From NCBI GenBank assembly GCA_964562525.1, contig CAZLTL010000009.1:11352-75351 (forward strand): a stretch of DNA of 64,000 nt, in the 5' to 3' direction. Below, piece by piece: positions 13,353 through 43,611 of the stretch. The first letter of the stretch is position 1; the number at the start of each line of letters is the position of its first letter. The stretch comes from an uncultured bacterium. Its GTDB lineage: Bacteria > Omnitrophota > Omnitrophia > Omnitrophales > Aquincolibacteriaceae. The position numbers were made by a program, and so were the translations under genes. The notes beneath the pieces were generated by a model that saw only the letters and a program-made list of their open reading frames with translations, was not told the origin of the DNA and did no database searches.

Positions 13353-16300
13353 ATGCGAATTAAAAAGCTTACAAGTTGGTTTTTGACTATATGTCTGCTA
13401 ATAACACAGATATTGACGCCTGATCTTGCCCAGGCAGCTAGTCTCGTTTTTGCTCCCGCGCAAAGTGAGGCTCAATCGGTGGCGGCTTGGGAGCCATCCA
13501 CGTTAACCGGCAAGGTTACCCAGCGTGTTCTGACCGAGAACTCAAAGGGTACGATTATTCACATTCAAGACGCGCATGCTGTCTTTGAAGCTCAAAAAAA
13601 CATCCAATCGCTAATTGCCCAAGTCAATAAGGTCGCCTCAGCTGAAGCTATTTTCATTGAAGGCGGTATAGGTAAGTTGGATCCCCAAATGAAGCATTTC
13701 TTTCCGGATGGGTTAACGCTCAATCCCGAAACTCGCGAAGCATGGATGAAAGAAGGCCATCTTACCGGTGCGGAAGCTTATTTAATGGAGAATCAACGTG
13801 CGCGCGGATTCGGAATCGAAGAAATGAAAAGTTATTGGGATAACGTCGAACTTTATCGTCGTGTCGATGCCATGCAGAACGAAAGCGCGGAGTTTCTTAA
13901 AAGCTGGTATGAAGTTTGGCAGGAAGAAGCCGGAAAAAATTTTAAACCTTCTCTTAAAAAATATTTACAGACGTACGCCCAATCACAAGTGGAGGTTTCG
14001 GCTTCCGCGCTTTGGTTTGATGCCTTAAGTGAGTATATCAAGGCCGAATGGAATCGCGATTTGAGCTCAATCGAAGAGCAAATCGAGTTTCCGATGCTGA
14101 CACGTTATATCTATCTTAAAAAAATGGATGGCACGCCTGATTTTTCAAAAATCGAAAAGCAAAAGCAGGAATTTTTTGCTTCGCTAAAAGGCCTAGACCG
14201 GAGCCCGTCAACAGATTCCATTTTTCGTGAAATCGACAACCTTATCGAAAAATCCAAAACTGAGGCGATTGATTTTTCCGGTGCGCGCGAAGCATTTGAA
14301 CAGCTTGCTGCATATTTACCGGACGATTTTTCTATTGAGCGCTGGCCCGACTTAAAAAAACTGATCGAGCGGATTATTCTTGCGGGTGAAATGGATTCAG
14401 AAAAACTTCTGCGTGAAGCTAAACGGCTTCATATTCAGGTTATCAAAAAAGATGCTCAGGCAAAAACACAGCGAACACTGGCGCTTTTACTTGAAAAGCA
14501 GATCTTGCTTACCAAGCTCTTGAGTTTGGAATTAACCCGTGAAGATTTTCAAAAAACTTTAGATCATCCCGCGCAACCTCAAGAGTTAGCTGCGGAATTG
14601 GAGCGCATATCCAACAACGCTCCTGAAGCTGCAGGACGCATCTTCGGTAGTGCGCAAAGTGGCTTTACAAAAATTAATCAAACATACAACCAGGCTGTTG
14701 CCTTTTATCAAGGTGCGATTAATCGTGAAGCGGCCATGGAGCGTGCGATCTTAGAGAAAACCAAATCAGGTCAGATTTCAATTGTTGTTACGGGTGGTTT
14801 TCATAAAGAGGGAATGGAGTCTTTTGCGCGTCAGCAAAATTGGAATTATGTCAGCGTGATGCCGCGTATTTCAAAAATTCAACCCGAAGATTTCGCTCAT
14901 TATCGCCGCGCGCTGTTGGGGGAAGGCAGCGCGCGCAGCGAAATGGGCACTCCTTCGGAAGTTGCCGCCGCGCTTTTAACTAGCGCGGAAGTATTCAAAG
15001 ATCCCCGCGCCGCCGCCCGTGAGGAAGCTGCTTTGGTTTTGTCCGGCTCGGAAGAAGCAATGCGAAGGCTGGCGCACCACGACGAAGCCCGCAAAGGAAA
15101 AAATGCACCTCGCATGAAAAAAGCAGCGGAGCGTCCCAGAACAAGTGACCGGCCTCTGTCTGAGTGGGAGGGCGCGCGCGCTCGTCCGTCGGCCCGCTCA
15201 GAAACGCGACTGCAAGAAGCAATTCAAAAGCTCGACCAGTGGAAGTTGCGGCATCAAGGATCCGATATTCTTGAGCGTTATGAATCCGATCCTTTTATGA
15301 CCAGGCTTGAGGCTCAAGCGTCATTAATATTTAAACAGCTGCGCTTGAATGAGCTGACCGTAGGAGAGCGCGCCCAATTTGTCCAAAGTGCATTTGGAGA
15401 TGTTCAGCCTGCCGTTTCTGACTTTGTCGCAGGATGGATTGATAGTTTTTCACCTGAAATCTTAAACAGCGCTGATCCGATTGATTACAAGGCATTTCAC
15501 CAAGTGAGCTCAAATATGTCTAATCTCGAGTATCGCTATAGCTTGATGCAAAATCAAATGATTCGCACAGCAGGCAATTTGGTATTCGACTTGAGCGAAC
15601 AAGAAAAGCGCTTTTTTGAACTCGAATATCTTTGGCATGAATTTGATAAAGAAATGCAGAAATCGGGCACGGGTGATATTCCGGTTGTTGCCGCAATGCA
15701 AGATTTGCACGGAGGCACGCGCCGAGCTTTAGGATTGATCGCAAAACTTTATGGGTTACCTCCGGATTCGTTTAAAAAGATCAAGAACTTGACTGACCTT
15801 AAGCGATTGTTGGATGAACAAAACCTTTCGACTGCAAGTTTATCCGGCAGAGTGGTGGGATTTAGCGATTTGGTTGACCGCGGTGATGACCCGGTGGGAG
15901 CAATGGAATTAGCGCGCGAGTTTAACGAAAATTCACTCGGACGATTCATTTTAGGAAATCATGATTTATGGAGAATCATGGGTGTCTTAGGTGTTCATCA
16001 ACTTTTCGGAAAAGAAAAAGAAGAAGATTTTGATGTCACGGAAAAAGCGGATCATCCCGCTTGGTGGGCCTGGGAAGCGTTTCATCATGCCGGATGGGGA
16101 GACCGAGAGCTTGAGCAGTTGAATGAACGGCGCATCAACAGTCGTATTCGTGAAGCGAACTCGGCTATTCAGCGGCATAATCAAAGCTTTCCCGATCAAG
16201 CGCAACTCCTTCTTGAAGAAGTCAATTTGGAAGCTTTTGGTGAGGAGTTAAACAAAAAGCTGAAAGAAGCTAAGAAGAAAAACGAAGCTATTCGCGGGGC

Positions 16301-19300
16301 TTGGCAAAAAGCGGTTGTGGACGAAGATAAAGCTGCTCTTGCCGATTCTCGTCCCAAGAAAACAATTCGTGAACCTGAGTTTGTTCCTCTTCCTGATGTG
16401 TTTCAAGAAACGTTGAAATACACATATGAGGTGGTGGAGAAATACGAAGAGAGTGTGCGCAAGTTGAAGCAGCAAGGCGTGGATCTCGCGACCGACTTTA
16501 AAAGCATTCGCGTTGTTACGCGTGACAATTACCAACAAGACCCCGATGTTTTGAACAATATGCTTTGGCAAGTTCAGAAATTTCGTCTTTTTTATATTGA
16601 TATTTTAGGCAATCTTCACATGCATAACATTATTCCCATGGATTATGAAGCTGGAGGTATGGCAGTGCATTATCGCGGATTGGATGGCATTGCGGCGCTT
16701 GAACTCATGACCAAAGATATTCGAGAATTTTTTGAACAAGTGACAATTGATGATTTGATGGGACCGCCTGAAAAAATTAGTGAGTTTAGGCAGCGCATGT
16801 GGAATGCCGTAGGCGAAGCTTTTACGATTATTAACTCATGGTATTCCGACCGCGTTCCTGTCGCCAAAGCGATTGCTGTTCAGAAGTTTATTCAGGAGGG
16901 AAATATTGAGTGGTATTTGGGTTCGGCAGGGGCGTTTGTTGATCGTGAAATTTCTGGAGTTGTTTTTTGGGGGCACAATGAAGCCAAGAAATTTGTTGAA
17001 GCTAATTTGGCCCGTTTCATTATTTATCCGCAACATGGATCCGGGCTTATCAATATTGATGGAGGTATGTCCAAAGGTTATGAAAATCGCGGGCTTGAAG
17101 TTACCTTTGGTCTTCGGAATGAGGCCGGACATATTCAGGGGTTACAGGCTTGGGGATATCACTCCAAAGGAACTGATCAAGACACTGAAACGGTGGTGGA
17201 TTTAACTCGATCGGGTGAGTTAACCGATGCGATGAGCGATGAGCAAAAAGTTCTATTGGGGCATTTGACCCACGGTCCTACTTATTTGCGTTGGCAAAGG
17301 CATAAAATTTTAACTCTGCTTGATCGCGGCTTAGAGTCTTTTCTTCGGTCTTCCACCGGGCAGCGTCGTGAAAAAATTGTGAAATTGCGAAAGCTTCAAA
17401 AACACGTTCATGAGCATTTAAAATCAGACAAAGATCCTTTGAGGTCGATAGAAGCGGTTCGATCGATAGCGCCTGAAGAAGCGGTTCAAACGGTTGATTT
17501 TTCGGTGATGGATCAAATTGAGAGCGTGAAGACTTGGAAAGAAGCGTTTTCCGTTATTGAAAAAATTTTAGCATTACCCACGACTGATCTTGCCGTTGCA
17601 GCGCTTAAACGGTTTATTCTGAAAGTTCGTTTTAATGGCGCAGGATTTGAGTTTGCGCAAGAACACTCCTCCGACGACTATTCCGATGATATTTACGAAA
17701 AAGGACGCGAGCTTGGAGAGAAAATCATTGAAAAATACGCGGATCATCCCGAGCTTGTGCGCCACTTCGTTTTTTCAATGCCTTTTGATTTGGATCGTGA
17801 CAAGAAAAATAAGCGAGAGCTGTGGGGGCTTGCTGCGGATTTTGATGATCGTTGGATGCGTGACGAAGATGGAGGTGAAACCGGGTATGCGAACACGCTC
17901 CGTCGTCTTATTCATCGCGCCGGATTCAGTTTTTCAAAAGCGATGGAATTAGTCCAAGTTTATATTGATTATTTGACGAACCCTAAAACTGATGGTGCTT
18001 GGGAAAATGTAAGGCGCGTTGCCGTCGTTAATTTTCCGAGTGCGGCGGACAGAGAATTGCGCGACGAGGTTCAGAAGCAAATGTCTCAAGGCAAATCCTT
18101 AGGACAAATTCAATCCGAGCCTTTTCAGATTTTGTGGGACATGCGAGAAAAAATTTTGCTGGCTCAAAATGGAATTCGGCACAAAGAATTCTTTGATCGT
18201 TGGCAGCGATCTTTGTTAGCTCAAACGCACCCTGAGATTCAGCCTTGGATTGATCGAATTCTGAGACCTCAGATGCCGCGTGATGATCTCTATGCAGTAA
18301 ATGAAGCGATGAACTGGGTGAGCGAGCTTGGGAAAAAGCAGCTGCCACCTGAGATTCGCTACGAACAAATACATTTTTATCAGTCGCTTGGATCCATACT
18401 GCAAGATTTGATCCCTTCTTATTTGGAGGGAATCAGTGAATTGCCGGATATAGAACGCTTTCGGCATATCGCTGAAGTTGTTGTTGTTTTGCAGCCGATG
18501 TTAAACCGGTTGCGAGACCAAGGATATTTGACTCGCGATAGTAAAGACTGGATTGTTTCGCTTCAGGAGTCGTCGCTGCAGCTTGATCAAATTTATGATT
18601 TACTTCAAAAAATCCGAGAAGACATCAGCTTTTTCACGGGGAAGTTTTTTGATTCTTACAATCAGGAGGCGCATTTACTTTTTGGCGAAAACACGGTTAC
18701 TTTAGAAACAACCTTAAATATGCTCTTAAAAGAAGAGCAAGAGGTAAAGTTAGCAGGGCAATTGATTGAGGTTTTATCTCATGCGATTCAAGGTATGCCG
18801 ATGGAGTATCGACAGAGGAAATGGCGCTCGTTGTCTGATGTGTTTCCATCAACCCAAGATGCGCGCCCCCAAGGGCATGCGGCATTTGCGTTTTTTAACC
18901 AACCTCAAATATGGATGAATCAAAACACTCGCCGCATATGGGGTGGAGAAAAAGCATCAGTGCTTGCTCTTGCGCGGAACCGCTTGGGCGTTCCGGTTCC
19001 GCCGGGTTTTGTGGTTCCTGCAGATTTTTTTATGACTTTGCAGACGTCGCAAGCGTGGGGTCAATTCAATCAAGAATTAATTCGCGGCGTTCATCAGATT
19101 GGAAAAGAATGGAATGATGCTTCATCCGAGCAGCTCCGCTTTGGAGATCCGGATCGTCCGCTGTTTCTTGCCGTTCGTTCCGGATCGACGTTTGTGATGC
19201 CGGGGCAATTAGCAACTTTTATCATGATTGGGATGACGAGACCCATTTTAAAAAAAATGATTCAGTCAGATTCTCCCAAAGAAGGATATTTGGCTTACTA

Positions 19301-25300: not shown

Positions 25301-28300
25301 AAACGCGCCTTATGTGAAAGTTTACGATCATCGAGGACAAGAGCATCTTCTGCCTAATTTTAAAATGATGCTTCGCATCTTCAGAGCTTTAGCGAAGGCC
25401 TATCCGGATTATTTCAAGCCCCCGTATTTATCTTACGAACACGGCGACTTGCATTTTGGCAATATCATGGCTGATATTTTTGATGTCATTTCTGACAAAG
25501 CCTTGCTTCGATTTAAACTCATTGACCCCAAGTGGATGCCGGAGGGGAATGACCCGCTTTATGATTTTGCGAAATTACTGCATAACTTATTCGGACATTA
25601 TGACTTGGCTTTGGATCACTCCGACACCTACCATTTCAATATGCAAGATCCGGGCACATCCGCGGATCCGTTGGAGATGAGCGATTATGTGGATGATGAA
25701 GCAGTTGGCACGCTGGAAATGCTTGAACGCACGCGGCAGTTTCAAATTGAAACATGGGATTTTTTGCGCACTCATCGCGGCGCAGCTTTTCCTTTCGAGA
25801 AGGATCCGGTGGCTTGGCGCGTTCGATTACTTTTCACGGAAGCATCATTGATCGCGGGACTTTTCCCTTTTCACATTAAGTCCTTGGAGAAAACCAGCAT
25901 TCTCTATGAGCGCGCATTGACGCTTTTCAATAACACGATCGGATTGTTTGCCAGCCTTCAGGACAGCTCTTTGATTCCGAGTAAAGATAAAAAACTGCGC
26001 AAAGCTTTGAGGAAATTAATTTCAGCCCAGCAAGCGGTAAATGAACCTGCCTTTGTGAAAGCCTTGAGTCAAGTTGATAGCCTTGTTTCCGCCCGCTCGG
26101 AATCAAGAGAGCGTTATCAGCAAACACCGGAGCAGGTTTCGAAAATGGTTTATCCGTTTCAATCCATTGCGCATATTAGCTATGAAATGGCGCCGTTTTT
26201 TAAACGAGGTGGGCTTGCGGATGTGGCGGGGGACTTACCGCCTGAGATGATCAATTTGCGACCCGGTATGGATGTTGCCATGGTGATGCCTTATCACAAA
26301 GACTTGAAGTTAGAAGGCAGTGAGTCTCCGCGTAGTATCGGCAAGTTGGAGTTTGAAGAAAAGGAAACGCGCGAAAAATATGAATTTGAAATTTTTTATT
26401 TGAAGCATCGCGGCGTGAATGTTTTCTTTCTTGCGCATCCCGATTTTTTTCAACTGGGCTATAACAATCCGGATGCGGACCGTGAGCGAATCTTTTTTGC
26501 TAAGGCAGCGACCGAGTTTATGGTTCAGCGCAATTTGAAATTTGATGTAATTCACGCGCACGACCAAGCGGCCGCGCTCGTGCCCGCCTTTGTGCGCTAT
26601 ACACGCGATGATTTTTTTAAAAACTCAGCTGTCATTTACACCGCGCACCATTTTTCACCCGCTTATCAAGGGCGCATGGATTTGTCTAAAAAAGGAATGT
26701 TGACTTCTCTGGGAATGCCCGATGAGCTTTTCAAATTGGGTGGGCAAATGGAGTTAAACGGTCATCTCAATCCTGTCAAAAGCGCGATTGAAGTTAGCGA
26801 TTTTGTCACCACCGTAAGCCAGGCCTTTGCCGTAGACGCTGTTTTTAGCGGTTTAAGCGATGGACTGCAAGGCTCTTTGCACAAGCGGTTTAATGAAAAA
26901 ACATTGGTGGGTATTAATAATGGCATGAACCTGGATCTGTGGCGCCCGGATGTGGCGCCCGGAGTTGAAATTCCATTTAGGCCGGATGATTTAACCGATG
27001 GTAAAGCTGCCAACAAAGCGGTGCTTCAGCAGGCTTTGGGGTTAGCGGTTAGCCCTGCAGCAATGCTTGCGACCATGTTTGCCCGCTTCGATGGTGTGAA
27101 AGGTTTTGATATTGTGGCGCAGGCTGCGGCTCCGCTTTTGTATCAGTTCAAAGATTTGCAGTTTGTTTTTGGCGGAGGCGGTGACCCGGCGATTACGGAT
27201 CAATTGCTGGGAATTCAAGCCGACCCGCTTTTTAAGGGACGCATGGTGGTGATACCGCAATTTGTGAGCGAAAGCGTGATTCAACGTGTGCTCGCTGCGG
27301 CGGATATCGGCTTTGCGCCTTCACGCGTTGAACCGCACGGACTCTTTCAGCTACAAGCGAAACGTCTTGGTGCGACCCCCATTACTTCCAACGTTCATGG
27401 TCTGGGTGAAACCGTTTACGATCGCCGGCATGGCGATCTTTTACAAACCGGAATTAAGTTTGGTCTTGGTCAACCCGCGTTAGAGCTTGGAGTCGGCTTG
27501 GCGCGTTTTGCAACTATGCGGGAAGTTGCGCCTGAGTTTGTACGAAATATGCGCGACGATGCCATGGGCTCCGTCCGCTCATGGCAGCAAATTGCTCCCG
27601 AATATTTTGATCTTTATACTCAAGCTGTTCAAAACCGGAGACAATTTATTCAAAATCGATCCGAAGCCCGCACGGTTGACCCGGTTAAAGAGCCTGTTTT
27701 TGATCAGCAAGGCTGGAGTCAGCGCGAACGCGAAGAAAGTCCCGTCGCTGTTCCGTCCCCGCAAACATTTAAAGGGAAATATTTTGTTGTTTTAGATGAC
27801 AAAACTTACTTGCTTGAAAGCTATGAGCAAATACTTAAAAGCCACGGCGCTGAGAATGTTTTGATGGGCGCTTCATCCGAAGATGGATTGCGGCTTGTGG
27901 CTGAATTAAAAGCCAAAGGTGTTGCGGATGAAGATATTGTTGTGATTACGGACTATCAATTCAAGGGTGAGGACACGGCTCTCAATCTGATTAACTTTTT
28001 GCGCGCGCCTAAAGACCAAGCTGTTTTTAAAGGCCCTATTTTAATTGTGTCGGGCAGTATCGTGAGCCGTCACGAAATACCCGGTATTCAAGAAGGCAAG
28101 TTAAGCGAAGAAATGCATAAAAAATATGGTTTGGCTTATCTTGAAAAAAACGGCGGTTATTATTTCCGTGAACAGCTTTTAGCGGCTTTAGGCGAAGTGA
28201 TCAAAAACCACGTTGATGCGGATGCCTTTGCTCGTGAGCCCCTTGCAGTAAAAACGGCAGAAGAAATGCAGATCCCTCAGGCTCAAGTTCATTTGCAGGG

Positions 28301-31300
28301 CGCAATTAACGATTGGGAAGCCGCGGCTGGTCGCGCTGTTATTCAAAGCTTAGAAGCTCTTTTGGCTGCCGCTCCTGAACTTTCCGAAGAGCAGGTAGCT
28401 TTCATCGGAAAGCGTTTAAATCAAATCCTCAAACGCATTGAGTTCGGGGCAATTGACCGGCGCATGAAATTCGAACGCCGGGTTCACGATTATAAAAGTG
28501 CTTTGCATCAAGTGCTTACGGTTGAAATGCGCGAAGCGCTTGATGCTGCGGAAGCGTTAAGCGGCGTCAAAACGGAAGCGCTCAAAGCGGAGCTTTCACG
28601 GCTTGAATCCTTTTTAAAATCAGCTTTTCATAACGCGTATTTCTTGCAGCAGCTTTTTGATGTGTTGCGTCGCTTAGACAAAATTCAAAAGATGGAGCCG
28701 CTTTTACAACAAGCAGTGATCCGTTTTCAGCAGCAGCATGAAGGTAAAGCATCCGAAGCTTGGGATCCTGCGTCAGGCATTGCTCAGGGTTTTGCGGAAT
28801 TGCAAAACTTTGAAGCCGAAATCGCGCGCAAAGAAATCGAAAAAGCGCTGATTGCGTGGGGGCGTTTGCGCAATGATTACAAAGCCGTTGAAGAAACTTT
28901 AAAACCCCTAATCGGGGAACAGTTGGGGACTCGCTCGTCTGCCTTTTTAGAAGCAATGAGCGCAACGATTAACGAATTGTTTCAAGCTTATGTCAGCCAA
29001 TATGGCGTTGCGGGGCTGAAAGCCGCGGAGCCGGGCCGTGCGGCAGGGCGAATCAAAATTTTAAAAGGTACCGAAGACCAAATACGCGCCGAGCTTGAAC
29101 AATTAGACGCAAATCAGATTGTTGTGATTGATCAAGACTATTCATCGCTTTCGGCGGCCGGCGATCAGCAATCCGGCATTGTTTTTTCGCGCGAAGGCGC
29201 CGGTCATCTCGCAACACGCGCTCGTGCTTTAGGTGTTCCGCTCGTTTATTTACCCGATGCGGTTGAATTGTTGCCGGAAGGAATGCCTGTTGTTTTAACG
29301 AGCGAAAACGGAAAAGGTATTTTGCGCCCTGCCGCGCAAAAAGAAATGGCCGATGCCAAAATTTTGAAAAAATCGCGCGTTCAAGTGAAGCCCGTGCCGG
29401 TGAACTGGGATGTTGAACCGCAAATGCACATGTATTACGCGATGAATATAGATTGGAAATCGAAGGCATCGCTTGATGAGCTTTCTTCAATTATGGGACC
29501 TAAAGCCGCGCGGCTTTTTATGATGAACCGTGATCACGAGCAAACTTACGCCAGCGTGCCAACTAGTTTATTTCTCAACTTTCCATTTTTCAAACTGGTT
29601 CTAGAGGCGAACCCCGAGGCGGCCGAAAAAATTCGCCTATTAGAAGCGGAAATTCAGGGCTTAATGGTACAAGTTGATAAAGCTGTTCCGCTTGATTTGG
29701 TGCGGCAAAAGTTAATGCAAATTCAAAATATTGTGGGAGAGTTAAGAATTCCGGAAAATTTACAGCGTGAAATTCGTGAATTTCGTAACCAACGCGAGTA
29801 CCGCCCATTGGAAGAATACGAGATTCGGAGCGGGTATAAGCCTTGGATTCCTCGTTTAATTGCGCGGTTATCCACGAATACGGAAGATTTGGAAAATAAT
29901 CCGGGTGTGGGAGCGGGGGTTTACGGTTCAAATGAAATTGGCTCTGATTTAAATACAGTTTCGCAAGAAGACTATCTCAAAATTGTGATGCGAACGTTCT
30001 CTAGCTTTTGGTCCTGGGAAGCCTTTGCCGACCGCCGCTTTTACGGTATTTCGGAAGAAGAAGCTTTTCCTGCTCTGGTTATCCAAGAAATGGCGGGGCG
30101 CGATGATGGCTATTCCGTTTTAATTCATACGGCAGAGCCTGCTTCCCGTGATCCGAATATTATGATGATTGAATTAATTCCGGGATCAGGCCGCGCTTTA
30201 ACAAGCCCCGAACCTAAATTGCAGGGTGAACCGTTTCGTTTTTATTTTGATAAAACATCAGCTGAAGTTGTCAGTGAAGGTGATGAGCGCGTACATTTGC
30301 GCCCTGTGATGGCGACCAAAAAGTATACGGTTTCGCTTAAAGATGGTTCGCTTGAGCCGCTTGATTACCGGCAATATCCGGATTTGATCGATAGCGGACG
30401 TGTTAAAGAATTGGTAAGTATGATTGCATCAAAAGCATCAAAAATTGAGACTTACTTTGGCCGGCCGATGGATATCGAGTGCATGATTGAACGGATGTAT
30501 GAGTTTGTGCAAGGCCACCCTGATTATGATCCAAATAAAAAAGTAAATGTTGCGGTGTTTGTTCAGGCTCGTCCGCAGGGTGGTTTTGAGGTTTATAAAA
30601 GCAGCCGTCAATTTGATGTTGAAAGAAAAAAACGGGTTGAATTTATAAGGCAATGGATTGCCCGTTACGGCGAAGCAAATTTACGTGATCTTAGTTTTTA
30701 TCTCGGCCCCGATCACGAAAAAGCCTATGGCCTTGGAATTGATTATAGCCCTGATGAATCGCGCGGCATGGCTGAGACTTTTGGCGAGCTTATTTCGAAC
30801 AATTCGCCTTACCAAATTATGCCGGCAGTCATTAAAATTTTAATGACGGAAAAAGAGTTTGAGCCGGTGCGTGAGGGAATTTTGCGGCGGTTTTTCTTTT
30901 ACGCCAAATGGCAGCATGCGTCTTTAACGGCCTTGCTCGAAAATCTTTATGAAAAGGATAAAGATTTGTTCTATCAAATTTTGCCTTACATGATTCCGTC
31001 TTTTGGCAAGCATCCGGATCCCAATTTGCCCGAGGCAGAATGGTTTGATGCCGCCAATGAATCCCTTTTTGCGCGTTTTCTAGTTTATTCGCATCTAGCT
31101 TACGACATGACGGAGTTTGTTAAGCCGCTTCCAACGGATCAGTTGGCAGCTCTCATTAACTTAATCAACAATTCCGGTTTTTTAATGTCGGGAAGACATG
31201 AAACCGAAGAGCAGCTTGCTGAAGCCTTTGCCGCGCGGGCAGATAAAGAACAATGGATGGATTACATCGAAGAGCGTTTTAAAGATAAGCACCCCTCATT

Positions 31301-34058
31301 TTTTAATCGCTCGGAAGCCCGCAATGTTGCGCAAGACTTTTTAGATTGGGTTAAAAATTCAGACTTTATTTTTAGGCTGGGTAATTTAAATCAAATTGAA
31401 TTATTGGTGCGCGATGGAATTGAGCCCGATCAAATATCCATCGCAAGTTTGTTAGGCCCGACCGGCGGCTTCGCATTTGGCTTTGATATCCCGCCAATTT
31501 TTTATGAAGAAGGTGTAACCATTATCAATAGCGGACTTTATCAAGCGCTTCAAGATCGAGTGAATGGCCGTGATTTTTATGAAGCGCGATATTTGGATGG
31601 TGCTAATCAAGAAATTGGGCGTGCTTTCAATCATGATCATCGGCGGAAATATGGTCCGGGAATGGGTGCTGTTAAGGGCGGTTCCAAGCATAGCCACAAA
31701 AGCCAAAACCGATCTGAAATGCGTGATGCTTCGGCCGAGGATGCGCTGGAACTTTTGCGCAAGGCTGCGGGTATGGTCAAAAGTCCTGAGCATCGTGTTC
31801 CGACCGGAAACCAGGAGACAGCGGGGAGCGCTCAAATGCGCGACGCAAGAATTTTGGAAGTCGTTCTTGTGATTGAATCTCGGCCGCAAGTTTTGCGCGC
31901 CGTTGCAAAGCTTGTGCGCGATAAGGCTCCCAAGCCGTTGTCAGCGGAAATGGAAGCGGATTTAGTTCGGATTGATACTAAGGCCGAGCAGGCAGAGAAT
32001 AAAAAAGCGCGCCTTGATCAAGAGCCCACGCCCATGCCGGATGCCATAAAAGAGGCGCTTGCCGAACGGGAACAAGCCGCAGAGGCAGCTTTGTTGGCCC
32101 CAGTTTCGAGATTAGTTGCGGCTGAAGCGAAGGCGAAGGCAAAGCCCGCCCAAGAAGTTACGGCGGAAGAAATAACTGCGGTTCAACCGGAAGCGCTTGT
32201 TGAGCCGGTTCAAGCGGATATGATCGATCCTCGGCTACGTAATTTACCTGGCTTAAGAAAAGAATTTGCGGCGAGAACACCGTCCGACCGGCGCAGTTTG
32301 GGGGCTATTCTCAAATCGGAAAATCTTGATCAAGCTTTTATTCAATCGCTGACAGCCGTTTACCGTAAGCATTACGGGTATATGAAAAAAGTGATCGCGG
32401 AATTCGGATTTACGGATTATGACCAGCTGCGGCTTCTGACCAAAGAGCTGGATTTTGATTATAAAACGATTGTGCTTGAAGACGGGGACTTGCTTCAAGG
32501 TGTCGAAAAGTTGCAGGGCGTCGTAGATAAACAAGCCGAGATTTTAAAATTGGCGCAAAAAAATGACTGGGATTTACCAAAACTTCAGAATGTTTTATTC
32601 GGAGGACAGTTTTATTATTTGGGAGATTTGATTAAAGGATTGAATCTCGCCGCGGATTTTAAAGCCGAAGTTGAAAAACGGTACCTGGCCGCTCAAGGCC
32701 GTCCTTTTAAAGATAAAACAGCTTCTTTTTTTGGTTTGAAGCAAGATGGGTTTAATGATTTGATTGCGAAGTTGCGAATAGAATTGCCGCTAATAACTGC
32801 GACAGAATCTTCTTCCATGCCGGCTGCTGTAAATAATCCCGCGGAAGACCATGACGCGGCCTTGAATTTTTTGCGTGCCAATGATTGGAATATCACAAAG
32901 CTGGTTGCGCATATCCGTGAGTTGGTACACTCAAGCGGTGCCGCCGCGGAGACCCGTGAATATGCGGATGTTTTGAAGCCGCTCAATTTGAAGGTTGAAT
33001 TTAAAGCTGAATTTGAAAAACGGTACCGTGCTCGTTACGGCTATTTCGCGGGAGTGGTGAAAGATTTTGGTTTGGGTCAAACGGATGGTGCCATTCGTGA
33101 TATTTTAAAATTGTATGAAATTGATCCCGCCCAAATTGATTTGAAGCAAGGGGACTTGCTGGTGGGCGTAGATTTGGGTAAGAATCGCGCGAAGGCGAAA
33201 GAAAAGCTCATGCAAAAGGTAAATGCCAAAATGGCGAGCGAAGGCTGGGATTGGAACTTGCCCAGCATCCTGAAATGGGCACAAGATTATGCGGGTGGGC
33301 GCTTGAATTATTTACAGATGTTTAAAGCTTTGGATATTCGCGCGGAATTTGAAGCGGAGCTCGAAGCCACGCGCGCCCGGACCAAAAACGCCGATGAAAC
33401 CGCGCAACGGTTTGGATTTAAAAACAACAGCAATCTTAAGTTTTTACTTAGCCAGCTCAAAAGTGATGTGCGTTCTGAAATGCGCGGGGAACAGCCTTCA
33501 GCGATTCAGATAATGACTGCGCGTTTATTTGCGGCCGGATTTTTATCTGTTGAAGATGCGGTTTATTATTTAAATCATCGCGAGGAGTTTTTGGAAATTT
33601 TACCGCAACTGGTTTCGGCCGAACTTCAAAAGCAAGAGATGGAAAAATTACAGAGTATTTTGGGTACAGATATTACCGTGAAAGACGGCGTTATTTTGTC
33701 TTCGGGATTGGTCGAGCAAGGATTTTTGGCGGCTGCCGGAAAAATATTTAAGGATGTTCCGTTTGCCTTTATCGCGCAAGGGGAGCAAAAATTAGAAGCT
33801 TTGAAGTTAATTGAGCAAGAAGGTTGGGCGGACCAGATATTTATCGCGGAGAGTATTCAGCATGCGCAAGCGCTGCTTAAAAAGCACGGCGCCACGCGCA
33901 TTCAGGGAATGGCTCTTGCGGGCGAAGAGCTCTTGGGCGTGCAGGAAATCGTTTCATTTACAACCGGCCAGCTCCAAAAGTTTTATAAGCAAGCCGGAAT
34001 TTTGAACGAAGTTCAACATTGGGCCCAAATTTTCTCTGCTTTCGCTTCCGCTGCTTAA
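13353..34058 (+). CDS. Giant multi-enzyme membrane protein (6901 aa) with two glycosyltransferases, a deacetylase, a kinase, a phosphatase, a receiver-like domain and two PEP-synthase-like phosphotransfer modules
   Basis: A single uninterrupted ORF in the track. Motifs read in the translation, with approximate nt positions in brackets. N-terminus MRIKKLTSWFLTICLLITQILTPDLAQA|AS is a signal peptide. GTIIHIQDAH ... SIVVTGGFHKEG is a possible TraB/GumN-like domain (13530-14850). DLHGG / GDLVDRGDD / GNHD are the PPP-family GDxHG, GDxVDRG and GNHE signatures (15690-15970). 'GGEKASVLA...LGVPVPPGFVVP ... LFLAVRSGSTFVMPGQ ... AWGTPLIVQKYV' resembles the PEP-synthase/PPDK N-terminal ATP-grasp (18930-19950), and VVVSSEGGALSHAATSAAEGQVPAVVGV resembles the PEP-utilising phospho-His swivel (20215-20300). 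LVVIPIANEKS ... VVFLDADL resembles a GT-A/GT2 fold with a DxD motif (20590-20905). Two hydrophobic helices LLFAGAFVLGIGLLQTILGLAAFKVALGLVGAALVGVTFFSAF lie at 21945-22075. SPHPDDDVIAA is the PIG-L/LmbE AHPDDE motif (23253). EHGDLHFGNIM ... GNDPLYDFAKLL are APH/choline-kinase-like motifs (25437-25560). APFFKRGGLADVAGDLP ... EPHGLFQLQAKRLGATPITSNVHGLGETV are glycogen-synthase GT5 motifs (26180-27410). YFVVLDDKTYLL ... VVITDYQF is receiver-like (27775-28150). A second swivel GIVFSREGAGHLATRARALGVPLVY (29175) is followed by a second ATP-grasp ALVIQEMAG...VLIHTAEPASRDPNIMMIELIPGSGRALTSPEP (30070-30200). Four ~110-aa C-terminal repeats sit at 32250-33500. Confidence 0.8.
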   Translation: MRIKKLTSWFLTICLLITQILTPDLAQAASLVFAPAQSEAQSVAAWEPSTLTGKVTQRVLTENSKGTIIHIQDAHAVFEAQKNIQSLIAQVNKVASAEAIFIEGGIGKLDPQMKHFFPDGLTLNPETREAWMKEGHLTGAEAYLMENQRARGFGIEEMKSYWDNVELYRRVDAMQNESAEFLKSWYEVWQEEAGKNFKPSLKKYLQTYAQSQVEVSASALWFDALSEYIKAEWNRDLSSIEEQIEFPMLTRYIYLKKMDGTPDFSKIEKQKQEFFASLKGLDRSPSTDSIFREIDNLIEKSKTEAIDFSGAREAFEQLAAYLPDDFSIERWPDLKKLIERIILAGEMDSEKLLREAKRLHIQVIKKDAQAKTQRTLALLLEKQILLTKLLSLELTREDFQKTLDHPAQPQELAAELERISNNAPEAAGRIFGSAQSGFTKINQTYNQAVAFYQGAINREAAMERAILEKTKSGQISIVVTGGFHKEGMESFARQQNWNYVSVMPRISKIQPEDFAHYRRALLGEGSARSEMGTPSEVAAALLTSAEVFKDPRAAAREEAALVLSGSEEAMRRLAHHDEARKGKNAPRMKKAAERPRTSDRPLSEWEGARARPSARSETRLQEAIQKLDQWKLRHQGSDILERYESDPFMTRLEAQASLIFKQLRLNELTVGERAQFVQSAFGDVQPAVSDFVAGWIDSFSPEILNSADPIDYKAFHQVSSNMSNLEYRYSLMQNQMIRTAGNLVFDLSEQEKRFFELEYLWHEFDKEMQKSGTGDIPVVAAMQDLHGGTRRALGLIAKLYGLPPDSFKKIKNLTDLKRLLDEQNLSTASLSGRVVGFSDLVDRGDDPVGAMELAREFNENSLGRFILGNHDLWRIMGVLGVHQLFGKEKEEDFDVTEKADHPAWWAWEAFHHAGWGDRELEQLNERRINSRIREANSAIQRHNQSFPDQAQLLLEEVNLEAFGEELNKKLKEAKKKNEAIRGAWQKAVVDEDKAALADSRPKKTIREPEFVPLPDVFQETLKYTYEVVEKYEESVRKLKQQGVDLATDFKSIRVVTRDNYQQDPDVLNNMLWQVQKFRLFYIDILGNLHMHNIIPMDYEAGGMAVHYRGLDGIAALELMTKDIREFFEQVTIDDLMGPPEKISEFRQRMWNAVGEAFTIINSWYSDRVPVAKAIAVQKFIQEGNIEWYLGSAGAFVDREISGVVFWGHNEAKKFVEANLARFIIYPQHGSGLINIDGGMSKGYENRGLEVTFGLRNEAGHIQGLQAWGYHSKGTDQDTETVVDLTRSGELTDAMSDEQKVLLGHLTHGPTYLRWQRHKILTLLDRGLESFLRSSTGQRREKIVKLRKLQKHVHEHLKSDKDPLRSIEAVRSIAPEEAVQTVDFSVMDQIESVKTWKEAFSVIEKILALPTTDLAVAALKRFILKVRFNGAGFEFAQEHSSDDYSDDIYEKGRELGEKIIEKYADHPELVRHFVFSMPFDLDRDKKNKRELWGLAADFDDRWMRDEDGGETGYANTLRRLIHRAGFSFSKAMELVQVYIDYLTNPKTDGAWENVRRVAVVNFPSAADRELRDEVQKQMSQGKSLGQIQSEPFQILWDMREKILLAQNGIRHKEFFDRWQRSLLAQTHPEIQPWIDRILRPQMPRDDLYAVNEAMNWVSELGKKQLPPEIRYEQIHFYQSLGSILQDLIPSYLEGISELPDIERFRHIAEVVVVLQPMLNRLRDQGYLTRDSKDWIVSLQESSLQLDQIYDLLQKIREDISFFTGKFFDSYNQEAHLLFGENTVTLETTLNMLLKEEQEVKLAGQLIEVLSHAIQGMPMEYRQRKWRSLSDVFPSTQDARPQGHAAFAFFNQPQIWMNQNTRRIWGGEKASVLALARNRLGVPVPPGFVVPADFFMTLQTSQAWGQFNQELIRGVHQIGKEWNDASSEQLRFGDPDRPLFLAVRSGSTFVMPGQLATFIMIGMTRPILKKMIQSDSPKEGYLAYYYFLFSAAELLDIPSEEMHQRVKTYLESINEAKVQDLQIEQMRKLTEWMERLFAEKQMGENLEDLLAYPDKQLFLAASKVRQSWDDEHARAYRVENNISEAWGTPLIVQKYVLGSSEKKSGSGLARSRNSKGEKILNGDWLAAAQGLDLVSGFQTPRSLDALAEEQPVIYDQLRQMVESLEAYFGRPVLVEFTVSNGRLWILQVSRDKSVKSLKLPALYLKDLRQQTILGQGASVYASSGGFRGKAVYDLLSAFDADGRLNSGWLQEIQQQKLDGLIWIVESMTPKKTAMMLKAKKELESQGLRLVVVSSEGGALSHAATSAAEGQVPAVVGVQQMQFSSGEVRVLNGAVLLPKSVLTIKFDNGSIYYGRVPLELERSEARSEIRLPKKPEWLEDKARANYEAIYGKNGFLDSLEHKIETNRNLRKMLESAEILVVIPIANEKSWARTSNLIDDVRRYARENSAKKLKIVAIAEEGSPTAVRLAPRQDEGFQILYKDKKDQGKGASEFAGIYLASRSLKKGPEYSGAQAVVFLDADLKLSNGQESAKSLLGSLISEIEKHPHSAMVLLHALKRRFSDDDGLAHFWTLAFTEALYGLSFFQSHGGEFAVSREAVKALLESGKSGDEPAMSVHDVYDLEHPLMLRLASLISRKKLPESYLVQHTKVYKDHTETEPERIFKRMEEELIPRLFETALSDQDFIQARPDLSQNLFYDEDGLKRRVRDKEVNTTKFFDMAGSFLQNHFHELEPLAHLDRHPELEPFLRGLESERAQIQSAAMARDYIHFEFHPVFFGQVTRNALFLFAAEPEEEKRKDITRRYMLFVKAAFFDYAATILKENPNALLLDVVLNRKDAPFAQAIEGAFRSEIRAGKPSFLSKVQGHVDGRLLFAGAFVLGIGLLQTILGLAAFKVALGLVGAALVGVTFFSAFRGIYLDAKRKAKLAQNERFADLERKHQLRSKVWTALDAWPAPAIQTWIEKEESAAIPDLSQIRDHYVLGALHFKKAAGYFRAGMDAELSNAEIARGIRFELKIARDEFQRVDYDRDAGVLLNALNRLALDSEEPSPALIHFVEYFILARLRAQPRKAWADAPLPQGGYVLGKNPTSAELKNYLLPLKKNAVVFLLPGESKIAFKLKPLYRDLRKNKNNIRFVELKPQDYASREALIDKIRQTDSEKADILITPFAGLMPEKNNPYPAELQRYFEDAKDLYEVEIGKRVDQIFYETDLVPTLANYFVAADEKTARISSQSLFEGHKTQEFRTPYSVITVLMAFVAGTLGMKKGILKFSEKPTLADAFYRTGIYGDERPQQPNEPSKLRRIFLVSPHPDDDVIAAKAVLAEAMKLAQEGEVVAEVIVMQPGENGVVDLNETQMKEALRLALGYDAGDLNAARVTELKKAWGKTLIEIRTLHENVLAEYKERYPAAAEKFKAKLETFKGVDFDALFDAAANQAWSYEELAKSGIQKKEINQATQALLKETAKYFIRRIENQRAIDFFNEAYPGKIRAQFFPEFLGYPSSGPQDLRFIHELEEHAAVVLQHLLMKFERSVKDAPKEAVISIVAPHRVDSHPHHVGSWKVINEAMKLWSTQASRQSSRDVEVLYYFAPWSGNLPAYHLSPQTKKSTNADLLRALIAGELTASRFGLPSPKELQTMQAQRYLVRPSILNARSEVRSNRQEKSTKFFLAAAEALKKGDRRRFESEKSKLEKLGMRVLAVGNSEFFPENWKTKRPRVYTRAEREEVLRLVTAKVKKTMTPQEKRQLRVTVESQILAIGEDEVGLIGVQNYAEGESSKFNDPHLQVVSASDSSRLESMTRQLASGFMNMTQYGGAANIEYQVQYLWWGGTEAFTATSEQLHGGSYSEVHRFFNPDGSSHVVKTADPRKDGGKLLNEAKMIQSLPEDAAAFFPKILKVIDQPGKTEVWMEDLQGASLTGLINSAPGMVHMSRKEDLLSFSPFVVARQIYSLLLGIFYMRKKSDTPDDFAEKYHFSKLEKRWQEAEAVSPAFKKWINAPYVKVYDHRGQEHLLPNFKMMLRIFRALAKAYPDYFKPPYLSYEHGDLHFGNIMADIFDVISDKALLRFKLIDPKWMPEGNDPLYDFAKLLHNLFGHYDLALDHSDTYHFNMQDPGTSADPLEMSDYVDDEAVGTLEMLERTRQFQIETWDFLRTHRGAAFPFEKDPVAWRVRLLFTEASLIAGLFPFHIKSLEKTSILYERALTLFNNTIGLFASLQDSSLIPSKDKKLRKALRKLISAQQAVNEPAFVKALSQVDSLVSARSESRERYQQTPEQVSKMVYPFQSIAHISYEMAPFFKRGGLADVAGDLPPEMINLRPGMDVAMVMPYHKDLKLEGSESPRSIGKLEFEEKETREKYEFEIFYLKHRGVNVFFLAHPDFFQLGYNNPDADRERIFFAKAATEFMVQRNLKFDVIHAHDQAAALVPAFVRYTRDDFFKNSAVIYTAHHFSPAYQGRMDLSKKGMLTSLGMPDELFKLGGQMELNGHLNPVKSAIEVSDFVTTVSQAFAVDAVFSGLSDGLQGSLHKRFNEKTLVGINNGMNLDLWRPDVAPGVEIPFRPDDLTDGKAANKAVLQQALGLAVSPAAMLATMFARFDGVKGFDIVAQAAAPLLYQFKDLQFVFGGGGDPAITDQLLGIQADPLFKGRMVVIPQFVSESVIQRVLAAADIGFAPSRVEPHGLFQLQAKRLGATPITSNVHGLGETVYDRRHGDLLQTGIKFGLGQPALELGVGLARFATMREVAPEFVRNMRDDAMGSVRSWQQIAPEYFDLYTQAVQNRRQFIQNRSEARTVDPVKEPVFDQQGWSQREREESPVAVPSPQTFKGKYFVVLDDKTYLLESYEQILKSHGAENVLMGASSEDGLRLVAELKAKGVADEDIVVITDYQFKGEDTALNLINFLRAPKDQAVFKGPILIVSGSIVSRHEIPGIQEGKLSEEMHKKYGLAYLEKNGGYYFREQLLAALGEVIKNHVDADAFAREPLAVKTAEEMQIPQAQVHLQGAINDWEAAAGRAVIQSLEALLAAAPELSEEQVAFIGKRLNQILKRIEFGAIDRRMKFERRVHDYKSALHQVLTVEMREALDAAEALSGVKTEALKAELSRLESFLKSAFHNAYFLQQLFDVLRRLDKIQKMEPLLQQAVIRFQQQHEGKASEAWDPASGIAQGFAELQNFEAEIARKEIEKALIAWGRLRNDYKAVEETLKPLIGEQLGTRSSAFLEAMSATINELFQAYVSQYGVAGLKAAEPGRAAGRIKILKGTEDQIRAELEQLDANQIVVIDQDYSSLSAAGDQQSGIVFSREGAGHLATRARALGVPLVYLPDAVELLPEGMPVVLTSENGKGILRPAAQKEMADAKILKKSRVQVKPVPVNWDVEPQMHMYYAMNIDWKSKASLDELSSIMGPKAARLFMMNRDHEQTYASVPTSLFLNFPFFKLVLEANPEAAEKIRLLEAEIQGLMVQVDKAVPLDLVRQKLMQIQNIVGELRIPENLQREIREFRNQREYRPLEEYEIRSGYKPWIPRLIARLSTNTEDLENNPGVGAGVYGSNEIGSDLNTVSQEDYLKIVMRTFSSFWSWEAFADRRFYGISEEEAFPALVIQEMAGRDDGYSVLIHTAEPASRDPNIMMIELIPGSGRALTSPEPKLQGEPFRFYFDKTSAEVVSEGDERVHLRPVMATKKYTVSLKDGSLEPLDYRQYPDLIDSGRVKELVSMIASKASKIETYFGRPMDIECMIERMYEFVQGHPDYDPNKKVNVAVFVQARPQGGFEVYKSSRQFDVERKKRVEFIRQWIARYGEANLRDLSFYLGPDHEKAYGLGIDYSPDESRGMAETFGELISNNSPYQIMPAVIKILMTEKEFEPVREGILRRFFFYAKWQHASLTALLENLYEKDKDLFYQILPYMIPSFGKHPDPNLPEAEWFDAANESLFARFLVYSHLAYDMTEFVKPLPTDQLAALINLINNSGFLMSGRHETEEQLAEAFAARADKEQWMDYIEERFKDKHPSFFNRSEARNVAQDFLDWVKNSDFIFRLGNLNQIELLVRDGIEPDQISIASLLGPTGGFAFGFDIPPIFYEEGVTIINSGLYQALQDRVNGRDFYEARYLDGANQEIGRAFNHDHRRKYGPGMGAVKGGSKHSHKSQNRSEMRDASAEDALELLRKAAGMVKSPEHRVPTGNQETAGSAQMRDARILEVVLVIESRPQVLRAVAKLVRDKAPKPLSAEMEADLVRIDTKAEQAENKKARLDQEPTPMPDAIKEALAEREQAAEAALLAPVSRLVAAEAKAKAKPAQEVTAEEITAVQPEALVEPVQADMIDPRLRNLPGLRKEFAARTPSDRRSLGAILKSENLDQAFIQSLTAVYRKHYGYMKKVIAEFGFTDYDQLRLLTKELDFDYKTIVLEDGDLLQGVEKLQGVVDKQAEILKLAQKNDWDLPKLQNVLFGGQFYYLGDLIKGLNLAADFKAEVEKRYLAAQGRPFKDKTASFFGLKQDGFNDLIAKLRIELPLITATESSSMPAAVNNPAEDHDAALNFLRANDWNITKLVAHIRELVHSSGAAAETREYADVLKPLNLKVEFKAEFEKRYRARYGYFAGVVKDFGLGQTDGAIRDILKLYEIDPAQIDLKQGDLLVGVDLGKNRAKAKEKLMQKVNAKMASEGWDWNLPSILKWAQDYAGGRLNYLQMFKALDIRAEFEAELEATRARTKNADETAQRFGFKNNSNLKFLLSQLKSDVRSEMRGEQPSAIQIMTARLFAAGFLSVEDAVYYLNHREEFLEILPQLVSAELQKQEMEKLQSILGTDITVKDGVILSSGLVEQGFLAAAGKIFKDVPFAFIAQGEQKLEALKLIEQEGWADQIFIAESIQHAQALLKKHGATRIQGMALAGEELLGVQEIVSFTTGQLQKFYKQAGILNEVQHWAQIFSAFASAA

Positions 34059-34096
34059 ACTTTGTTCTTTGTTCCTTGTTCTTTGTTCCTTATAAT
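34059..34096 (+). promoter_or_regulatory. Short tandem repeat (tttgttc/tttgttcc x4-5) immediately after the giant-gene stop, embedding a candidate sigma70 promoter (-35 TTGTTC 34069-34074, 16-nt spacer, -10 TATAAT 34091-34096) for the downstream gene, possibly giving a leaderless mRNA
   Basis: Sequence 34059-34105 reads actttgttctttgttccttgttctttgttccTTATAATtctcgaactATG; the ATG at 34106 lies only ~10 nt after the -10 box. Confidence 0.3.
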
Positions 34097-34105
34097 TCTC
34101 GAACT

Positions 34106-34963: not shown

Positions 34964-35058
34964 TTTTTTTTCTCTGCATCTAGGGCGCTCCGCCATTTAA
35001 AGCTTTTCCTTACTCAGCCGTTAATCGAATCAGACTTAATGTCTTAGGAGGCAATTTT

Positions 35059-35439
35059 ATGAAGATCAAAGCGGCTGTTTTGGCGGTACTATTTTTAGGC
35101 TTGGCTCAAGTAAGTTATGCAGATCATCACGAATCGGATGGCTGCGGATGCATGGGTAAAAAAGTAATGCGCGGCGTGGAAGGCGTAATTACTTTTCCTC
35201 TGGAATATGTGAATCAGTACGAAGTGCTGCATCATAAAAATTCAGCGCCGGCCGCGGTCATCGGGTCTGTTTTTTCCGGAACGGCGATGAGCGTAAAGCG
35301 CATTGTGAACGGGGTTTATGATATTGTGACTTTTCCGGTCAAAGTTCCCGGTAATTATGGGCTTTTGCTCGGAGATAAATATGATACGGCGCTTGATGCG
35401 TATCAGGGGAATCACGGAAGCTGTTCAGCCTCAAAGTAA
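35059..35439 (+). CDS. Small secreted hypothetical protein (126 aa; His/Cys-rich mature N-terminus)
   Basis: AGGAGG RBS 7 nt upstream. Signal peptide MKIKAAVLAVLFLGLAQVSYA|DHHESDGCGCMGKK. Confidence 0.5.
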   Translation: MKIKAAVLAVLFLGLAQVSYADHHESDGCGCMGKKVMRGVEGVITFPLEYVNQYEVLHHKNSAPAAVIGSVFSGTAMSVKRIVNGVYDIVTFPVKVPGNYGLLLGDKYDTALDAYQGNHGSCSASK

Positions 35440-35460
35440 AAAGAGTTTCTTAAAAAAGAT

Positions 35461-35497
35461 AAAACCGCGCGGAATTTTCCGCGCGGTTTTGCTTTTT
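35461..35497. terminator. Bidirectional rho-independent terminator between convergent genes
   Basis: aaaaCCGCGCGGaattttCCGCGCGGttttgcttttt: a self-complementary GC stem flanked by A-run and T-run, between the stop at 35439 (+) and the stop at 35496 (-). Confidence 0.6.
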
Positions 35498-36629: not shown

Positions 36630-36751
36630 AAATAATTCCTTTGAGGGCCGTTTTTTAGGCTTGTTTCTATTCTACCCGAGGAAATCCTGAAAAGCGAACA
36701 ACTAAGCGTGGCCTTTTAGACGCTCAGGGTTTGCCGGGCACAAGTTTCATG

Positions 36752-36779: not shown

Positions 36780-36796
36780 TCCGGCACCTATTTAAT

Positions 36797-36832: not shown

Positions 36833-36835
36833 GGC

Positions 36836-38695: not shown

Positions 38696-38702
38696 ATTTT
38701 TT

Positions 38703-43606: not shown

Positions 43607-43611
43607 AGCAA

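Follow-up and report, generated by a model that had tools for sequence, protein, structure and literature searches.

R-[S/A]-E-x-R delimiters and exchangeable cassettes in a giant Omnitrophota protein, a candidate polyprotein

Giant Omnitrophota proteins and the locus under study

Giant open reading frames (ORFs) of more than 20 kb are common in Omnitrophota and have been reported in most classes of the phylum (PMC10066038). Omnitrophota giants tiled with GT5, GT1, PPDK_N, receiver, NUDIX, and deacetylase/LmbE-like domains have been catalogued, and the export of enzymes that depend on ATP or nucleoside diphosphate (NDP)-sugars has already been noted as a paradox for these proteins (bioRxiv 10.1101/2023.11.21.568195; 10.64898/2026.06.07.730766). 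Whether such giants act whole or are cut is an open question in the literature (including PMC10066038 and bioRxiv 10.1101/2023.11.21.568195). Cleavage-point information is lacking for giants (West-Roberts et al., bioRxiv 10.1101/2023.11.21.568195), and the recognized cleavage motifs of huge proteins are stated to be unknown in a survey of such proteins. Here, we describe a 6901-aa giant encoded in a 64,000-nucleotide stretch of an uncultured Omnitrophota bacterium (GCA_964562525.1, contig CAZLTL010000009.1, positions 11,352 to 75,351 of the forward strand), hereafter called the window. The chain is punctuated by a five-residue motif, R-[S/A]-E-x-R, termed the delimiter. We assign a probability of roughly one half to the reading, drawn from sequence, in which a protease cuts the chain at its delimiters, making it a polyprotein.

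The giant shares with the described Omnitrophota giants, among them Archaeovorins and 'multi-enzyme metabolic cluster' long proteins (Seymour 2023; West-Roberts 2023; Nielsen and Lui 2026), the phylum, an ORF above 20 kb, many cytoplasm-type enzymes, and poorly conserved cargo. The catalogued proteins have a signal peptide and transmembrane topology, which this one may share, with a membrane hairpin supported by hydropathy and a signal-peptide-like start judged by inspection. As in class 1 of Nielsen and Lui 2026, many distinct Pfam families tile the chain and none is dominant, but the giant has 6901 aa rather than at least 10,000 aa. Archaeovorins (West-Roberts 2023) exceed 30,000 aa and carry numerous transmembrane regions and a divergent SecA DEAD helicase, whereas the giant has one hairpin and no SecA match. 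The original prediction for this ORF had considered its architecture undescribed in bacteria, a claim that must be withdrawn because multi-enzyme Omnitrophota giants are already catalogued. Within the literature searched, the new elements are the TIKI-like head family, the R[SA]ExR punctuation, and the use of delimiters as borders and indel points. Head domain, tail domain, and delimiter are not represented in Pfam or NCBIfam; term searches of both preprints turned up neither a TIKI- or TraB-like domain nor the C-terminal domain or the motif, and a full-text search for the delimiter in a limited literature set returned nothing relevant.

Viral polyproteins and the gingipain RgpA/Kgp/HagA precursors yield several mature proteins per frame through short protease sites, with the protease in the chain. 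The family to which the giant belongs differs in being chromosomal, in having thousands of members, and in carrying a highly variable cargo of metabolic enzymes, for which processing is a prediction. MARTX toxins offer another likeness, as large secreted proteins with variable, strain-specific effector arrays; they release their effectors by processing, a step that we infer here. Unlike MARTX proteins, the giant has no Pfam match to RTX repeats or to a MARTX-type cysteine protease domain in any tile (Pfam was scanned on overlapping 1000-aa tiles of the giant, and NCBIfam on its segments), and its start resembles a Sec signal peptide, not a type 1 signal. RRSP is cargo rather than the processing enzyme in MARTX toxins, whereas an RRSP-like fold is predicted here for the head domain.

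Plant GWD and PWD combine a PPDK-type ATP-grasp with a phospho-His swivel and lack the PEP/pyruvate barrel. The giant resembles GWD in its barrel-less dikinase-like modules, and the His-before-ATP-grasp order of module 7 may be a further analogy. It differs from GWD in that no CBM match, CBM45 and CBM20 included, was detected in the Pfam tiles, in that its best dikinase profiles are PPDK and PEP synthase, and in that its GlgA-like partner is dispensable.

The delimiter and the borders of exchangeable modules

The giant ORF runs uninterrupted from its ATG at 13353 to 34058 on the forward strand (20,706 nt; 6901 aa and a stop), with a GC content of 0.44-0.48 and an even GC skew along its length. 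A Logan contig (SRR13355622) that covers the 3' end is 100% identical to window positions 32393-36331. Moreover, contig ERR15459718_16426 from another sample, ERR15459718, referred to as strain L010, has an MqnA gene identical to that of the window and, before it, a 6837-aa orthologue of the giant at 86-92% nucleotide identity. Given this stop-free length with uniform composition, the identical independent contig, and the orthologue, the ORF is a real Omnitrophota gene and, as far as testable, no assembly artefact. The single frame and the order of its motifs agree with the original prediction, and the possible chimerism that it had raised finds neither a break in composition nor a conflict with the independent contig or the orthologue.

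RSExR occurs ten times in the giant (Table 1), compared with 0.1 in shuffled sequences, and each copy sits between recognizable domains. Across 168 proteins that share its N-terminal domain, R-[S/A]-E-[LVAMSIT]-R was counted 733 times against 12 expected. The over-representation thus amounts to about 60-fold in the family and about 100-fold in the giant; in 120 Omnitrophota AcrB proteins, which served as control, the motif was found once against 2.4 expected. Successive delimiters are separated by a median of about 240 aa, and tandem copies 4-9 residues apart are common in the family. Two further delimiters of the giant are decayed, RSEMG (aa 527) and RSIEAVR (aa 1364-1370).

The conservation of the delimiter operates at the protein level. 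In seven genes, the codons of the motif vary as does the gene background, which points to selection on the peptide and not on the nucleic acid; a role at the RNA or DNA level was rejected for this reason. Ser and Ala interchange freely within and between proteins, and phosphorylation or glycosylation of Ser was therefore rejected as the reason for the motif. The flanking residues are unconserved and mildly enriched in disorder-promoting types. One coherent clade of the N-terminal domain has no R[SA]ExR and instead repeats [AG][AS]SLG at comparable spacing, with the first copy just past the head domain.

Delimiters coincide with the borders of homologous modules in other family members. Delimiters at 1392 and 2365 enclose the dikinase module of P0045, and RAExR copies at 1083 and 1632 enclose the GlgA module of P0027; the hairpin-LmbE and kinase-like modules of P0017 both lie between delimiters as well. 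Among cargo-to-cargo BLAST alignments of 95 members, 20% cross a delimiter, compared with 54% under random placement, and 41% start within 30 residues of a delimiter, compared with 11%.

Cassettes are gained and lost at these points between close strains. Where the window encodes "...VDSLVSA-RSESR-[516-aa GlgA module]-RSEAR-TVDPVKEP...", the L010 orthologue reads "...VDAVVSA-RSEAR-TVDVVEKP...". The GlgA cassette with one delimiter is hence a clean indel between alleles that are about 90% identical. At L008, a syntenic locus of the metagenome-assembled genome (MAG) GCA_035436425.1, the flanking genes are 80-87% identical, and the giant there has 5039 aa and a Pantoate_transf match; over its last 1659 residues, which were compared, it shares only the C-terminal domain with the window giant. 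The closest family member found, P0017, has a head domain 67% identical to that of the giant and gives no alignment with its dikinase, GT-A, or GlgA modules. Cassettes turn over rapidly at delimiters.

The region just past the head has a spacing of its own. The first two post-head delimiters start 88 aa apart (window 14931-15209) and enclose a low-complexity mini-module of about 83 aa; the first of them is the decayed RSEMG. An 88-aa spacing is also seen in the L004, L006b, and L007 paralogues of the Omnitrophota MAG Betzabe_MAG072 (L004, L006, L007), whose delimiters start at 510/598/620, 556/644/666, and 83/171/193, so that the third follows 22 aa after the second. This MAG encodes at least four paralogues of the family, all of the RAExR type, and two of them are neighbors on one contig.

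Head domain, tail domain, and cassette content

The N-terminal domain (N-domain, about 480 aa) defines the family. Homologues of the first 550 residues or so occur only at the N-termini of other long proteins; stand-alone N-domain proteins were not found, and short matches have no family tail and look truncated. An exhaustive HMMER search with the N-domain recovered 5641 clusters (50% identity), of which 2776 reach E<=1e-10; their members are up to 7376 aa long, and those with an organism name are almost all Omnitrophota. A single-sequence scan of GTDB representative contigs gave four loci, and a separate profile search, with alignment A1, recovered three fragments only. The giant begins with MRIKK, a hydrophobic stretch, and AQA followed by AS, a signal-peptide-like start as read from the sequence, and all 14 aligned family members have a hydrophobic N-terminus. 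These proteins constitute an unnamed, very large family of long, putatively exported proteins that share one plan, namely a signal peptide, the head domain, variable cassettes, and a conserved tail.

Profile and single-sequence searches with the N-domain gave no Pfam (including TraB), NCBIfam, or PDB-sequence match. An AF2 structure model built with a 14-sequence alignment predicts a parallel beta-sheet core and supports, at fold level, a TIKI/TraB/RRSP-like domain; its best structural match is RRSP, a MARTX effector. Residue conservation strengthens the TIKI-like assignment. In 150 family members, conservation is 99-100% for H75, E103, R458, and H484 and at least 90% for D73, and the 28-residue spacing from H75 to E103 equals that in RRSP and Bcr135. 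In RRSP (H3902/E3930) and Bcr135 (H85/E113), this pair joins a conserved Arg and another His in the active site of a site-specific endopeptidase or esterase (PMC6254334). Compared with the TIKI/TraB/PrgY/EreA/ChaN superfamily, which includes RRSP, Tiki, and the erythromycin esterases, the predicted core is split by a helical insertion of about 300 aa. The 2His/2Glu set of the TIKI/TraB superfamily appears to be present along with a conserved basic residue, with Asp in place of Glu as the first acid. The TraB/GumN-like domain suggested by the original prediction is thus borne out at fold level.

The C-terminal 190 residues or so form a domain that recurs at the very end of more than 30 family members, and 106 of 165 family sequences terminate in -AA or -SA. 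Complete members end in [hydrophobic]-x-x-x-[S/A]-A-COOH (e.g., ARSA, AKSA, or ASAA). All 14 proteins of the SLG class end in -AA, while the RSE class comprises 35 proteins in -SA and 33 in -AA; this tail could be a C-terminal recognition tag. One relative, P0001 (1800 aa; L001 11000-12698), ends at a frameshift in its hairpin/LmbE module, and homology to aa 3120-3473 of the giant continues in another frame. A natural gene split at a delimiter was considered for P0001 and rejected, since the frameshift falls within module 4; it represents a sequencing error or a pseudogene.

The domain inventory of the original prediction holds for the most part, and the enzymes lean toward carbohydrate and phosphotransfer chemistry, but profile support for the cassettes of the giant is uneven. 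The strongest assignment is the GlgA-like unit, with Glyco_transf_5 at E 1.1e-42 (146.9 bits), a GT1 match, and the KRGGLADV motif; the TIGR02095 glgA model is covered from 2 to 476 of 477 within the 516-aa module, at 290.7 bits against a cut-off of 328.45. The predicted glycogen-synthase-type GT5 unit is accordingly upheld. PPDK_N was found twice (E 3.7e-16 and 1.4e-14; 59.7 and 54.6 bits, cut-off 27). The TIGR01828 (PPDK) match covers positions 11-337, NCBIfam dikinase matches stop near 440 of 800-865, and the Pfam tiles gave no PEP-utilizers_C match, the PEP/pyruvate TIM barrel. The best NCBIfam profiles for the dikinase modules are PPDK, PEP synthase, and, weakly, rifamycin phosphotransferase. 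For the PEP-utilizers swivel, the first copy scores 25 bits, above the cut-off of 23.1, which confirms the first ATP-grasp and swivel pair. The second module does have the swapped order, with its His swivel before a significant ATP-grasp, but the swivel reaches 19 bits and stays below the cut-off.

Other calls carry recognizable motifs with sub-threshold profiles. The PPP-type phosphatase retains DLHGG and GNHD, its middle motif reads SDLVDRG rather than the GDLVDRG first quoted, and Metallophos scores 15.2 bits against a cut-off of 21.5. For the PIG-L/LmbE deacetylase, the PHPDD motif is present, but the profile gives 18.5 bits (cut-off 28.2; E 0.003). The APH-like kinase region keeps its HGDLHFGN loop with weak matches to TCAD9 (19 bits, cut-off 40) and APH(3') (E 0.007), and no PDB match. 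The receiver-like region shows weak matches to CheY chains (E 0.16-0.4) that span the whole domain, and no Pfam match to Response_reg. The GT-A glycosyltransferase call is unconfirmed: the module resembles the family by motif only, with no Pfam, NCBIfam, or PDB match and no relative in the metagenome scan. Hydropathy supports the two-helix membrane hairpin, and of the four C-terminal repeats of about 110 aa that had been proposed, three are statistically significant in similarity and the fourth is not. Elsewhere in the family, the cargo includes cytidylate kinase, UDP-glucose pyrophosphorylase (UDPGP), deaminases, methyltransferases, NUDIX, HEAT repeats, and dockerin.

Table 1. Parts of the giant and their coordinates in the window
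Feature	Residues (aa)	Position	Strand	Basis
Signal-peptide-like N-terminus	1-28	13353..13436	+	sequence reading
Family N-domain; predicted TIKI/TraB/EreA-like core split by ~300-aa helical insertion; D73-x-H75, E103, R458, H484	~50-525	13500..14927	+	
Decayed delimiter RSEMG, 88 aa before first intact one	527-531	14931..14945	+	P0017 has intact motif at 521
Delimiter RSETR	615-619	15195..15209	+	motif
Module 2a, PPP-like metallophosphatase motifs and unknown sequence	620-1363	15210..17441	+	sub-threshold Metallophos; homologous module follows delimiter in P0017, P0018
Decayed delimiter RSIEAVR, probable phosphatase/dikinase border	1364-1370	17442..17462	+	P0017/P0018 alignments end 1285-1331; P0045 starts 1388
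Module 2b, unknown N-part, PPDK_N ATP-grasp, His swivel GGALSHAAT, no barrel	1371-2358	17463..20426	+	profiles; P0045
Tandem delimiter RSEARSEIR (copies at 2359 and 2363)	2359-2367	20427..20453	+	motif
Module 3, GT-A-like by motif only (VVIPIANEKS...GKG...FLDADL)	2368-2843	20454..21881	+	sequence
Delimiter RSEIR	2844-2848	21882..21896	+	motif
Module 4, membrane hairpin (2864-2911) and LmbE/PIG-L-like region (SPHPDDD)	2849-3642	21897..24278	+	hydropathy, weak profile; delimiter-bracketed in P0017
Delimiter RSEVR	3643-3647	24279..24293	+	motif
Module 5, APH/choline-kinase-like (HGDLHFGN)	3648-4247	24294..26093	+	weak matches; delimiter-bracketed in P0017
Delimiter RSESR and module 6, full-length GlgA-like GT5/GT1	4248-4768	26094..27656	+	profiles; absent from L010
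Delimiter RSEAR	4769-4773	27657..27671	+	motif
Module 7, receiver-like region, His swivel, PPDK_N ATP-grasp, helical tail	4774-5985	27672..31307	+	profiles
Delimiter RSEAR	5986-5990	31308..31322	+	motif
Module 8, no family match (Pfam, NCBIfam)	5991-6119	31323..31709	+	
Delimiter RSEMR	6120-6124	31710..31724	+	motif
Module 9, ~115-aa repeats (6400-6490, 6536-6584, 6633-6703)	6125-6706	31725..33470	+	related repeats in P0017
Delimiter RSEMR	6707-6711	33471..33485	+	motif
Module 10, family-conserved C-terminal domain, tail -SAA	6712-6901	33486..34055	+	family alignment

The giant is surrounded by ordinary chromosomal genes, including MqnA, an M24 peptidase, an OEP/AcrB efflux pair, a split transketolase, GGT, and ABC transporters. 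The AcrB encoded in the window shares 99% identity with a protein recorded under the name "Candidatus Omnitrophota bacterium"; all organism-named top matches are Omnitrophota or Omnitrophica. The ORF list places the start of MqnA (34019-34963) at a TTG inside the 3' end of the giant; translation probably begins instead at the ATG at 34106 (285 aa), as annotated in three other assemblies. The gap between the giant and MqnA contains no terminator-like site, and the two may be co-transcribed. On the reverse strand, 249 bp away and divergent from the giant, lies a Thr/Ser-rich ORF of 3237 aa (3390-13103) with a signal-peptide-like start, no Pfam family, and no delimiter. Its N- and C-terminal parts are conserved beside the family member P0001 (locus L001), and the pairing may be syntenic.

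Further downstream, the segment at 42000-43600, between AcrB and the Rieske/transketolase genes, is variable; it has a low GC content (0.40) and a 355-aa ORF with no Pfam match. The syntenic place in the related L008 MAG (13402-15521) holds a DNA methylase and EcoRII-C restriction pair. In another uncultured bacterium, a family member (L005 3309-9743) lies beside MqnA, the split transketolase, and GGT, but on the opposite side; comparison with window positions 34106-47239 suggests a recurrent chromosomal neighborhood for these genes.

Competing readings of the chain and their implications

In the favored reading, the whole chain would be exported by the Sec route, after which cleavage at R-[S/A]-E-x-R would yield about ten individual proteins. 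These would be the N-domain, a phosphatase-dikinase, a GT-A-like protein, a membrane-anchored LmbE-like protein, a kinase-like protein, a GlgA-like protein, a receiver-dikinase, a repeat protein, and the C-terminal domain. The protease-site interpretation draws on the strict five-residue motif, its free flanks, the autonomous enzyme-sized units between copies, the tandem redundancy, and the switch of motif at the level of a clade. The TIKI-like head may itself be the processing protease, a proposal we put forward as no better than tentative. It is supported by the constant presence of the domain, its never being found alone, its complete catalytic set, and the site-specific endopeptidases among its relatives.

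Two extensions of the polyprotein reading are more conjectural. The ATP- and NDP-sugar-dependent cargo could work in a compartment that contains nucleotides, for instance a host or prey cell, much like a MARTX-type effector array. This idea is speculative and built on analogy; delivery to the cytoplasm of a host or prey would resolve the paradox of exported ATP-dependent enzymes. The broader picture, possible yet doubtful as a whole, is a phylum-wide Omnitrophota system of thousands of genes. In it, Sec-exported cassette trains would be cut by the TIKI-like head endopeptidase at R-[S/A]-E-x-R or [AG][AS]SLG, cytoplasm-type enzymes would be released in stoichiometric amounts outside or into a host or prey, and delimiters would double as swap junctions.

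Several points weigh against cleavage and against the proposed role of the head. The cutting itself is deduced from sequence, the signal peptide was judged by eye, and a strictly conserved linker motif could equally serve docking, modification, or export. ATP-dependent enzymes are predicted to lie outside the cytoplasm, and no conserved neighboring protease gene was found in the compared loci. The N-domain has no match among Pfam or NCBIfam models, and a Foldseek search of its model against the PDB returned no significant match, the TIKI fold included. Moreover, the N-domain columns that co-vary with delimiter class are three hydrophobic columns and one gap column, none of which changes charge; hence, nothing indicates that the N-domain reads the delimiter.

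Some of these points suit a different arrangement, in which the uncut chain would serve as a membrane- or surface-tethered multi-enzyme scaffold or 'coat' and R[SA]ExR would be a non-proteolytic linear motif (a docking, modification, or export/chaperone signal) marking the junctions. We regard this as a possible, rather unlikely, outcome. It agrees with the treatment of Omnitrophota giants in the literature as membrane-anchored extracellular assemblies (PMC10066038; bioRxiv 10.64898/2026.06.07.730766). HEAT-repeat scaffolding is common in the family cargo, tandem motif copies could equally provide avidity, and the N-domain has no pocket changes specific to delimiter class. However, a motif with unconserved flanks that sits exactly between modules and is replaced in one clade is typical of polyprotein protease sites, the interchange of Ser and Ala speaks against Ser phosphorylation or glycosylation, and every member carries at its head a hydrolase domain whose catalytic set is intact.

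The original prediction had interpreted the chain as one fused pathway enzyme, a self-contained machine in which the GlgA-like and GT-A units would synthesize an alpha-glucan-like polymer, two GWD-like dikinases and the kinase would phosphorylate it, and the PPP and LmbE units would dephosphorylate and deacetylate it. The presence of two barrel-less dikinases, a GlgA-like GT5, and LmbE-like and PPP-like motifs in one chain favors this idea, as do the His-then-ATP-grasp order of the second dikinase and the co-occurrence of 'sugar-metabolism' Pfam families in Omnitrophota giants (bioRxiv 10.64898/2026.06.07.730766). Yet the module set is not conserved: L010 is devoid of exactly the GlgA cassette, P0017 aligns to no GlgA, GT-A, or dikinase module, the syntenic L008 cargo differs, and the same modules elsewhere adjoin unrelated enzymes (cytidylate kinase, UDPGP, deaminase, methyltransferase). 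The GT-A and receiver calls are unconfirmed, and the predicted extracytoplasmic location offers neither ATP nor ADP-glucose. With a GlgA partner that is dispensable in a sister strain and no starch-binding module found by Pfam, a co-adapted glycan machine is improbable, and punctuation by delimiters at the module borders is easier to reconcile with a polyprotein or cassette array than with a single co-folded megaenzyme. Sugars may well be the substrates of individual cassettes. Lastly, the absence of an identical database protein and the frameshift in the relative P0001 might suggest an assembly chimera or a decaying pseudogene, a long frame of no biological meaning. Such an origin is very remote given the 20.7 kb of uniform, stop-free sequence, the identical contig at the 3' end, the 6837-aa orthologue in another sample, and the collinear homologues of 4.5-7 kaa that share head, tail, and delimiters.

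Giant ORFs are a hallmark of Omnitrophota and other host-dependent ultrasmall bacteria, and the delimiter provides concrete candidate cut sites for the open question of how these giants act. It also offers a rational way of splitting them for structure prediction and annotation. If cleavage is real, the family would stand beside viral polyproteins and MARTX effector arrays as a large bacterial counterpart, and the TIKI-like head, as a candidate site-specific protease, might find use in biotechnology. Even if the chain is not cut, the grammar of head, delimiter, cassette, and tail defines a family thousands of members strong that is unmatched by Pfam and NCBIfam models.

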